64,000 nt of DNA from Haliotis rufescens. Taxonomy: Eukaryota. Below are positions 2,421 to 5,830 of this stretch, one piece after another. Below the pieces are notes generated by a model. It did not search any database, was not told where the DNA came from, and worked only from the letters and a program-made list of their open reading frames with translations. Within the stretch, counting starts at the first letter, position 1; the number at the start of each line of letters is the position of its first letter. The position numbers and the translations under genes are program-made. Location of the stretch: positions 7,502,001-7,566,000 of the forward strand of contig NW_025963846.1 in assembly GCF_023055435.1 (NCBI RefSeq), written 5' to 3'.

Positions 2421-2574
2421 CTCACAGTGTCGACTCTTAGTTTGATTGTTTACAGGCTGACACCTGTGTAACGTACACACGACATCACATTGTACTTTTA
2501 CAAACAGTCACACAGGAGATCATTTCCGTAAAGGTAATCCATATACTGTTATAAACCTCTCACGATGTCACTCT

Positions 2575-4330
2575 GTTAGAAATATAGGTTTTCTCGGTTA
2601 AACCCGTAAAGGAGTTATTCCCCTCAGAATGCCCGGGTAAGAAGGCATTCCGTGAAAAGAATGCCCGGGTCAGCGGGCATTCAACTGCTCTCCTTCTTGG
2701 TAGGATATACTAAATGTTAAAGAGAAAACTCGTGATTTCAAATCTTAAGTGTACGTACAGTGCAATTTAATGGAAATTGAGATTAATGACATTTTGGCGA
2801 GGCAACGACGGTGATTCTTGTAAGGATTCTCCGCGTTCTTCAGGTCTTGTTTGTCCGGCATCGGATGTAGGTGGAACAAGCAGTGCTTCCAGTGTATCGG
2901 ACTTACTTGTGCTGGTGTGGGAGGTTTCAGTTCCTGCCTTCGGTAGTTTCGTCAAGATCTCCGAGAGCTGTTGTTTCTGTTCGTCAGACGTTCGCTTGTA
3001 GCTCCGCACAGCATCGCTTCTTTGACCTGTAATAAACAAAATACCGTAATAACAAGAAGTTTTAAAAATCCACACATTTCTTAATGACGTTTAGTTCCAG
3101 TTCTCGACATATGAGGATACACACGTGTTTGCAAATTTTAAACTAACTTGATAACTACAAATATTAATATTGAAAAATGCCACTGCAATTCTTTTTCACT
3201 CTCGTGTCGTTGTTTCACAATTCTTTTGCTTGACATAAACATTTAAACTGATTTAACCAAACTCTTCTGTCTACGGTTGAATAATTTTAAAAGGAGGATA
3301 TTTAGAAACATTTCAGAACGTTAGACTGTTAATACATAATTTTCATAACATACCTGTTACTCCACACATCAGTTGCTCGTCAACCTGCTCCAGGTATTGT
3401 CTGTTAGCTGCGGTGTCCCTCAGGGAGTGGTTGCTTTTTCTTTCCTCTAGTCCCGAGGCTGACAGGGTGTTGTGACCAAACGGGATGCTCGTAAACCTCT
3501 TTTCAGAATTTCTACATCGGCTAGGAGCAAAATAGAAAAATTCGGCGTATTTCCCAACGGGACTGAAAATATATACATCATGTTTATAAACAAAGTAAAC
3601 AAGATTTTAACGTTAACATTCAAAAAAGTAATTCGTATGCCATATTTTTTCATACGATATTAATTTTCAATATGGTTTTAATTATATAGCAAAATTAGTC
3701 AACAAGAATGATATCAATTCCTCTCGTTCCATATATCAAAAATAGCATAAAAAATATGAAAAGCGTAAAAAATATGCATACCATAGTAACAGCCTGACAT
3801 AGCATTGTCTTGGGTTGCCAAGGTTTTCCTAGGCTCGCACTTGTTTGGGGACAACTTTCCGTTGATTCAACCCTCCAGCATTGGTTTTGGAAACGACTTC
3901 GCGGTTCAACATGTATCTCCCCCCCTCTTTCGTCCGTGTGTGGTCCCGTTATTTGAGGGTCCTTTCAAATCTTCATGCTCCTTCCCACCTCAAAAGGCAA
4001 AATGGAGACCTAAAATTAGGAATTGTCTTTATGAAAAGTGGCGATTCACGTCCATATATAAAAGCAAACACGTTTTGATCAATGTTGGAATGGATATAAA
4101 ATTTCAATTTTTATGAACATCTCCAAAATAATAATTTTAAATACAATATTATATGAATAGTAAAATAATGTAGTTTACACCATTCCTCAGTTTTATCATA
4201 AAGATAATATATGAACAGCTTTAATTGATGGGCATTTTCGCTGAAACAGATTTAAAATAGAAAATATACATTTTACATACCTGTGAGGTAGAGAATCGTG
4301 TCAAGTAGTTGTTGGGGAGGTTACCCACGC
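2575..4330 (-). mobile_element. Crypton-type (tyrosine recombinase, DUF3504-like) DNA transposon relic with spliceosomal introns
   Basis: Four exon remnants with YR motifs, plus a putative terminal region with paired palindromes (2627-2682). The 5' part is cut by a SINE at about 4333. Confidence 0.8.
2767..4330 (-). pseudogene. Crypton tyrosine recombinase pseudogene; exons about 4330-4281, 4009-3782, 3562-3354, 3026-2767
   Basis: Spliced translation: PQQLLDTILYLT|GLHFAF*GGKEHEDL...SKTNAGGLNQRKVVPKQVRA*EN..CYVRL|..FGHNTLS..KSNHSLRDTAANRQYLEQVDEQLMCGVT|GQRSDAVRSYKRTSDEQK. All three introns are GT..AG. The frame carries stops and frameshifts. Confidence 0.87.
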
Positions 4331-4332
4331 AA

Positions 4333-4548
4333 GGGTGGTCAAGCCGTCTATGGCGCCGCAATTCGCTGTGCAGAGTTGCGTCCCTTGGGCACGCCAGAAA
4401 CCTATGTTTGTGGGTTCGAATTCCGATTCGCCCCGATTATGTTTCTAGGTTTGTCAGCACCATACCCGTGCTCGTGGGTTTCACCGAAGTGATAAACGTC
4501 CGAGACATGCATGACTTCGGGCTTTCCTCCCTCATTAAGCGTGATATA
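4333..4548 (+). mobile_element. tRNA-derived SINE family B (Leu/Ser-like head), truncated by the Tc1 insertion
   Basis: Matches the full copies at 17331-17609 and 35471-35739. Confidence 0.85.
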
Positions 4549-5830
4549 CACAAAGAAAAAAGTTAAGCACACTCCCATTTCTGAACCATGACAAATGGCA
4601 AAATGATGGCATGGGATGACTGACCACAGGAGCTGGGTGATACCAATGTCATCGGATAGAACAAACATTTGACAACAAATAAAGAAGATATTGGTAAGTT
4701 GTGATTGAAATTTACTAACAAAAACATCATGGTAACACAGGTACTGTTTTTGACCTTAGACAACACCTAAAAAAGGTATGGAGCTCAGGATTAACTAAAC
4801 GAGTTACGTTTGATGTTGCATGTGAGCATGTTCCTTAAAGTCTCTACTTGACATGACACGTGAAACAGATCAGTATCGGGTATAACCGCCACTAGCCCGG
4901 ATGACGCATTCCACCCTACGTATAATGCCTCCAGTCAGACGTTGGATCTGTTGATGGGTCAACAACAACCACTCCTGATGCAATGCTGCTTCCAATTGGC
5001 GTACAGTAGGATCAAGAGAGATACACCCCCAAACCATTACCGAGCCCCGCCGTATGCAACAGTCGGTATAATGTTCCTGGGGGTGTAGGCCGTGTTCCAG
5101 TGCCTCCAAACTCTTGTTCTTCCATCGGTGACGTGGAGCAGAAAGCGACTTTCGTCTGACCAATGGATCCGTCTCCAAGTTCTCAGATTCCACTTCTGTC
5201 GCGCAATCCACCATGCTGAACGAGCAGCTTTGTGGTGATCTTTATGACTCGTCTAGCCCTCAGTCCTGCTGCTTTCAGCCGGTTCCTGACGGTTCTGGTT
5301 CTGAAACGACGATTGGGCAACCACAGCTGTGTCAGACGAGTACTTAAAAAGGGTTCTCGGCGTATGAGACAAAGAAGGCCCCTGTCTTCGCGATGTGTCG
5401 TCACAGGTCTTCCGGATCTAGGACGGTTCTGTACATTACCGGTCGGAGCATGTTTCTTGACTAAACGGCTTACGACAGTGTGATGATACAACAAATTCCG
5501 ACCAATGGCATTACAAGACATTCCTGCGTTATGCATGCCTATTATTTGCCACCTTGTCGCGTTTGATAATCGCCTTCGTGCCATGTCATGGAATTACAGT
5601 TTAAAACCGAGCTTAAGAAAGCAATTTTAACGTTTGGATATACTGCTTTTAGAGGTACCCGAGGGTAGCATGCTGCACGGGCAAACGATGCATGGCACGT
5701 GAGCTTTCGTCACGCATAACTGATTACATCATTTCGAGAAAACATAATTCTTCCCGTAATTATATCTTTCATGACTGTTACAAACAAACAATAATTCATT
5801 ATATTAGGGTGCTTAACTTTTTTGTTTGTG
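4549..5830 (-). mobile_element. Tc1/mariner non-autonomous deletion derivative
   Basis: 22-bp TIRs cacaaa(g/c)aaaaaagttaagcac with 1 mismatch, TA on both sides, internal transposase remnant. Confidence 0.92.
4870..5584 (-). pseudogene. Tc1 transposase remnant with internal deletions
   Basis: N-terminal HTH/SGRP, GSVMVWGCIS and C-terminal GGYTRY are present; the segment carrying the D2 and E catalytic residues is deleted. Confidence 0.9.

Follow-up and report, generated by a model that had tools for sequence, protein, structure and literature searches.

Does the intron-split recombinase remnant in this stretch of Haliotis rufescens DNA derive from a transposon that was itself spliced or from a domesticated host gene, and where do its introns come from? 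The window, that is the whole stretch of 64,000 nucleotides that was analysed, carries on its minus strand the remains of a tyrosine recombinase gene, in which three introns with GT..AG ends can be read from the sequence. Our results support a dead, 5′-truncated copy of a multi-copy Crypton (DUF3504) transposon and not a domesticated gene. Furthermore, we lean towards an ancient origin common to the middle intron of this dead spliced Crypton and the last intron of the host WOC/ZMYM gene. The window copy by itself is an ordinary fossil. The element is of a known kind; the conserved and shared intron is the new aspect.

Structure and decay of the recombinase copy

Intron sites are numbered by the residue of L005, an uninterrupted paralogous ORF of the same genome (371 aa), followed by the phase (e.g. 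154/1, 235/2, 314/1). A spliced aligner given only L005 returned the identical three introns (Table 1), and their coordinates (4280-4010, 3781-3563 and 3353-3027) are exactly those of the original prediction. A profile of 21 relatives scored 333 on the region with introns, 163 without them and at most 42 over 100 shuffles. GC content was 23-29% in the introns of the window copy versus 48-50% in the exons.

Table 1. Features of the Crypton copy and the repeat adjoining its break, with positions in the window.
Feature	Position	Strand	Details
3′ untranslated and terminal region	2549..2766	-	end ...GAGGTTTATAA at 2549
Exon 4	2767..3026	-	G-Q-R-S, catalytic Tyr in VRSYKR, C-terminal tail and stop
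Intron 3	3027..3353	-	327 nt, phase 1, Gly preceding second His, position 314/1
Exon 3	3354..3562	-	NHSLR (HxxR); in-frame 24-nt deletion relative to relatives
Intron 2	3563..3781	-	219 nt, phase 2, Cys codon, position 235/2
Exon 2	3782..4009	-	TGA as catalytic Arg codon, Lys in SKT, second stop, two frameshifts
Intron 1	4010..4280	-	271 nt, phase 1, Gly codon, position 154/1
Exon 1 remnant (PQQLLDTILYLT)	4281..4328	-	remaining 5′ part lost
212-bp high-copy repeat	4329..4540	.	adjoins break; outside the Crypton

The motifs SKT, NHSLR, GQRS and VRSYKR as well as the Arg position in F*GG were present as originally described. Both phase-1 introns split a Gly codon, but their placement immediately before catalytic motifs did not hold for intron 1, which lies six codons ahead of the Arg. 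The proposed extent of 2767..4330 was shifted at both ends: exon 1 starts at 4328, with positions 4329-4540 forming a separate repeat, and the element continues to 2549. Its terminal region contains a short inverted repeat (GAATGCCCG / CGGGCATTC), as read from the sequence. The 212-bp repeat, which is probably SINE-like, occurs elsewhere in the window in two full-length copies (88-92%) and three partial ones and had no match in Rfam.

The catalytic Arg codon of the window copy is TGA (3992-3990); in the ten relatives displayed it is CGA in four, AGA in two and another Arg codon in four. The second stop of exon 2 lies at 3831-3829. Relative to L085, exon 2 has an 8-nt deletion and a 1-nt insertion, which are the two frameshifts, and a 15-nt in-frame deletion near its 3′ end; the in-frame loss of 24 nt in exon 3 was likewise scored against L085. 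Since the Arg codon is a stop and the second catalytic His is replaced by Gln (GQRS), the copy is dead. The lost N-terminal part was sought by tblastn with five relatives over the 64-kb window, which gave no further piece, and alignment of the neighbouring 8 kb on the other side (L122) did not recover it either.

In run X18, contigs span both junctions, and over 2805-3923 they show 44 differences and 25 gap letters, as would fit an old insertion. Three putative RNA runs mapped on the window left the exons without cover and were uninformative about expression. Two decayed Tc1/mariner remnants with transposase HTH matches occupy positions 340-1149 and 4546-5593 (limits approximate), and a degenerate tandem repeat, whose period is close to 93/186 bp, lies at 1987-2420, just past the 3′ end of the element.

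Crypton identity, termini and splicing of related families

The 1.33-Gb genome gave 500 candidates for DUF3504, among which all 150 of the 150 scored matched; the window copy was absent from these 150. Pfam searches with the four single exon pieces returned no relevant match, but the spliced read-through of the copy scored 189 bits against the profile of 21 relatives and shared 48% identity with P0301 over 200 columns; P0301 itself matches PF12012 at 4e-33 and PF00589 at 1e-7. The DUF3504 affiliation that had been predicted thus holds by way of relatives, not of the separate exons. Only DUF3504, QRICH1 and Phage_integrase domains were present in the full-length relatives P0301 and P0063, and the catalytic R-H-R-Y residues are intact in relatives such as L088, L118, L093, L134 and L124.

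Two dispersed fragments (L002 and L003) belong to the own family of the window copy, at 87-88% identity. The first of them (L002/L102) is 88% identical to the exon 4 region and includes part of intron 3. For exon 3, where 73 of 97 candidates gave a match, the closest non-self sequences among the top matches reached 49-53% identity; for exon 2, with a match in 40 of 82 candidates, the closest reached 62%.

The TTTATAA terminus was found at the same place in 14 of 27 other loci examined, mostly with unrelated flanks. Family L085, whose copies are 86-97% identical, terminates in the same letters and has its 3′ end in common with the window element. A common 5′ motif is located 483-742 nt upstream of the shared 3′ end in 12 of the 27 loci, which the two common ends identify as short non-autonomous elements. 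These short copies start near TTATGG and finish in TTATAA, with no evident duplication by eye. The short copies L056-L079 measure about 0.5-0.7 kb; several carry a long 5′ hairpin and some show tandem expansions of a 32-bp subterminal unit.

Among the 21 loci of group A, the group of the window copy, the exact sites 154/1, 235/2 and 314/1 were present in 13, 16 and 16 loci, respectively. Site 314/1 was also used in L180. Besides group A (154/1, 235/2, 314/1) we distinguished group B (235/2, 325/0), group C (235/2, 270/1, 322/2), group D (72/1, 135/1, 207/2, 281/1, 312/0), group E (235/2, 314/1) and group F (290/2, 314/1); many other fetched loci had unbroken frames. In this portion of the gene, Crypton introns were seen at no fewer than 12 distinct sites. 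Site 235/2 was exact in 32 of 100 fetched Crypton-like loci (L084-L183), across four differently spliced groups, a proportion that is not a genome-wide frequency because the 100 loci were hand-chosen, partly for a DUF3504 match stopping near this site. The sites are common to families whose exon 3 is 39-53% identical to that of the window copy. In a quick tree, groups A, B, C and E together with the L103 family, which is without these introns, formed one clade (SH-aLRT 99). The same intron sites in close relatives and a 3′ end common to dispersed short copies thus bear out the predicted dead copy of a spliced animal Crypton family.

Among metagenome loci, 235/2 was seen in 0 of the best-scoring 80 of 285, a set biased to unbroken frames, and introns at other sites were found in 28 of these best 80. 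Viral contigs gave 18 pattern matches, none of which was confirmed. A second, unrelated spliced Crypton family (L150-L156) has five introns, intact frames and copies that are 96-98% identical. Twelve clustered DUF3504 matches with frames of 515-925 aa were located at G000:C323:3.19-3.52 Mb (L164-L166); in the three inspected, L164-L166, the alignment stops short of the HxxR-to-Tyr end. This cluster is possibly a lineage-specific domesticated family.

Splicing was observed in the young sister family of L134, and the three introns of the window copy are predicted. L134, L135 and L136 are 3.39-kb copies, 99.9-100% identical, which lie on three contigs with unrelated flanks and contain no stops or frameshifts. 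The original prediction had suggested looking for junction reads at intact paralogues. Contigs of X1 and X2, putative RNA runs of two studies, join L134 position 3313 to 3972. This skip of 658 nt equals the 235/2 intron as predicted, with a shift due to a TCAG that flanks it at either side, whereas both intron borders are read through in contigs of X15. In X7, a third putative RNA run, a piece ends at position 3313, and X1 contains a second skip of 505 nt versus 508 predicted. The RNA nature of X1, X2 and X7 is a guess. When spliced, L124 yields a product that agrees with an annotated abalone protein at all of 354 residues.

The introns of the L134 family are compatible with recent Crypton mobility, a point left open in the Glomhopper paper (PMC13465315). 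In addition, L134 provides an intact element on which the excision-circle model could be tested. At the 5′ end, the first few letters differ between the near-identical copies L134, L135, L136, L132 and L137, while the 3′ end is constant, as would be expected from a recombination core picked up at the donor site.

An intron site in common with the host WOC/ZMYM gene

The single WOC/ZMYM gene of the host (L021) lies on a different contig from the window copy. The only zf-FCS match of the genome is located 20 kb upstream on the same strand, and one L021 exon matches three ZMYM-like proteins annotated in abalone at 99-100% identity. Comparison of intron positions with relatives and with this gene, as originally proposed, showed that the sites are shared with relatives and that 235/2 is also present in WOC/ZMYM. 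The L021 domain has four intron sites, of which only the last matches a Crypton site. This last intron is in phase 2 in the same codon as 235/2 and opens TG|GTAAG in the aligned Cys. The Cys of RCPVKLYEFYLSKC aligns ungapped to RCFVRLFEKYRSLC of L085 (RC-x11-C in WOC and the intact relatives); five of these residues are lost in the window copy, whose donor context is the same. The pairs WOC 76/1 and Crypton 72/1 or 79/0, and WOC ~118/1 and Crypton 114/1, were rejected as matches, the sites being 3-6 codons apart. The last L021 intron also holds a 6-nt micro-exon, which is used in the annotated isoform P0122.

Protein ends point indirectly to the 235/2 intron both in Cryptons of other molluscs and in the WOC of further animals: where a frame is called on unspliced DNA, reading through a phase-2 GTAA donor gives R or W followed by a stop. 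In a search without length filter, 14 of 150 proteins ended exactly one residue past 235, 13 of them in R or W; at any nearby position there were at most three ends, and 98 proteins continued past the site. A length-filtered search with the query cut at the site gave 14 of 59 new proteins ending there, and four proteins occurred in both sets. At the 235 site, named proteins of mussels, oysters and gastropods either end or diverge. Among 120 WOC matches, those shorter than 400 residues and nine long ones were inspected; four fragments closest to copepod-like WOC end in W at the 235 site and a fifth diverges there.

For human QRICH1 (NM_017730), published listings place c.2071 in exon 10 and c.2207 in exon 11 (supplement rows of PMC10767160 and Table 1 of PMC10422060), and the last intron therefore falls in the interval from codon 691 to codon 736. 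This interval includes the aligned codon, which is 713 when the alignment is made by counting back from Trp739. The position of the last human intron is thus consistent with 235/2, not exact; literature searches for the exact human splice position gave nothing direct.

Origin of the shared intron

Goodwin et al. are said to have described, in 2003, fungal CryptonF genes that are spliced. Like the window element, CryptonF (as presented in PMC3212892) is a tyrosine-recombinase DNA transposon, and it is the source of the excision-circle model; unlike it, CryptonF belongs to another clade, carries a GCR1_C domain and has direct repeats of 4-6 bp. The closer counterpart is CryptonA of animals (Kojima and Jurka 2011, PMC3212892), which has the DUF3504-type tyrosine recombinase and short non-autonomous derivatives. 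No long terminal repeats were seen at the one surviving end of the window copy, which would fit CryptonA. In contrast to CryptonA as given there, the window gene has its introns at sites that are conserved between families. The word 'intron' occurs 13 times in the main text of PMC3212892, each time for host genes and never for introns of animal Cryptons. Glomhoppers (fungal CryptonA, PMC13465315) resemble the window family in their DUF3504 recombinase and many intron-bearing copies. In that paper, no intron position is common to Glomhopper copies, and intron-rich copies are taken as possibly degenerate or domesticating, whereas the sites described here are common to families and one spliced family has near-identical dispersed copies. 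WOC/ZMYM2-4/QRICH1 (PMC3212892) have a homologous domain, and the L021 orthologue has one intron at the codon and phase of the window copy. Unlike the window copy, WOC/ZMYM is single-copy, fused to zinc fingers and without the HxxR-to-Tyr end, and its three further intron sites match none of the Crypton sites seen here.

According to the model cited in PMC3212892, an intact element would be transcribed and spliced by the host, the recombinase would excise it as a DNA circle and re-insert it, and short copies with the same ends would be mobilised by the recombinase. As a Crypton moves as DNA, its introns travel along, and sites can persist while intron sequences turn over. WOC/ZMYM would have been domesticated from a Crypton that already bore the 235/2 intron. 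Inheritance of the WOC/ZMYM intron from a spliced transposon is our preferred reading, with about an even balance between it and parallel gain. With the same evenly poised confidence, living and still-transposing spliced Cryptons may keep an intron older than the split of molluscs and arthropods, possibly that from vertebrates, which WOC/ZMYM2-4/QRICH1 would have inherited at domestication.

The main competing explanation accepts the dead spliced Crypton and takes the match with WOC/ZMYM for a parallel gain at one site, which we regard as a serious possibility that we tentatively disfavour. Cryptons often gain introns, as the at least 12 distinct sites indicate, and AG|R occurs at this codon in many of them. 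AG|R-type contexts are favoured sites for intron gain. A hand calculation with 4 host sites, 12 Crypton sites and about 800 possible ones gives a chance match of about 6%, and more if gains favour certain sites. The trees also give WOC no firm place, as parallel gain would allow. In a tree of 45 rows (LG+C20; rows picked from the 109 of a larger tree), WOC was sister to a 26-row clade containing all Crypton rows with 235/2, at a support of 43/30. The AU test did not reject a tree with WOC outside this clade (p 0.54). The WOC branch is very long, a FastTree run placed WOC outside the 235/2 clade and two intronless groups, and two Crypton groups branching equally close to WOC are without the 235/2 intron, as are the best-scoring 80 metagenome loci. 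The tree neither supports nor rejects inheritance of the intron. Against parallel gain, 235/2 is the most widespread intron among the families of this genome and is present at the base of the 26-row clade adjoining WOC, and the host site is TG|C, not of the AG|G type.

It is highly improbable that the introns came late, as intron-making transposons or AT-rich junk that inserted into a Crypton copy without introns. Relatives without these introns do exist in the same genome (e.g. L103, L110, L116 and L117), and the original prediction had named such relatives as a sign of later insertion. However, the L103 family and the others form separate subclades and do not thereby make the introns of the window copy late insertions. 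Moreover, sites and phases are identical across many diverged families, and the intron sequences of the window copy match none of 53 loci except for the end of intron 3 in L002 of the same family. That the copy is a decayed domesticated DUF3504 gene, as had also been suggested, or a broken duplicate of WOC/ZMYM is hardly credible in spite of its several introns and the one site in common with WOC: its frame is broken and, in contrast to host WOC, it retains HxxR and Tyr, it nests among multi-copy transposon families and has same-family fragments (L002, L003), its terminus is that of dispersed short copies, and the WOC orthologue is located elsewhere.

Inheritance of the intron from a spliced Crypton, if true, would exemplify a host intron derived from a transposon and not gained later. 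According to PMC3257199, work on intron gain has assumed zero ancestral introns in domesticated genes since transposons lack introns; the WOC/ZMYM intron would then be a counter-example. PMC3212892 states that WOC/ZMYM/QRICH1 are not linked to animal Cryptons by phylogeny alone and that their source lineage has probably died out; inheritance would identify a surviving sister group of this source element. The shared intron is a marker independent of phylogeny and can be checked in any annotated genome. No report of an intron common to Cryptons and WOC/ZMYM was found in the literature searched, which did not extend to Repbase entries and subscription journals.

Between the WOC/ZMYM exons of the host, on the same strand as these, we observed an unbroken recombinase frame with all catalytic motifs (L163; G000:C246:5163640-5165058, minus). 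It belongs to a divergent, multi-copy family, whose best other copies are 77-79% identical, and is therefore likely a transposon in an intron.
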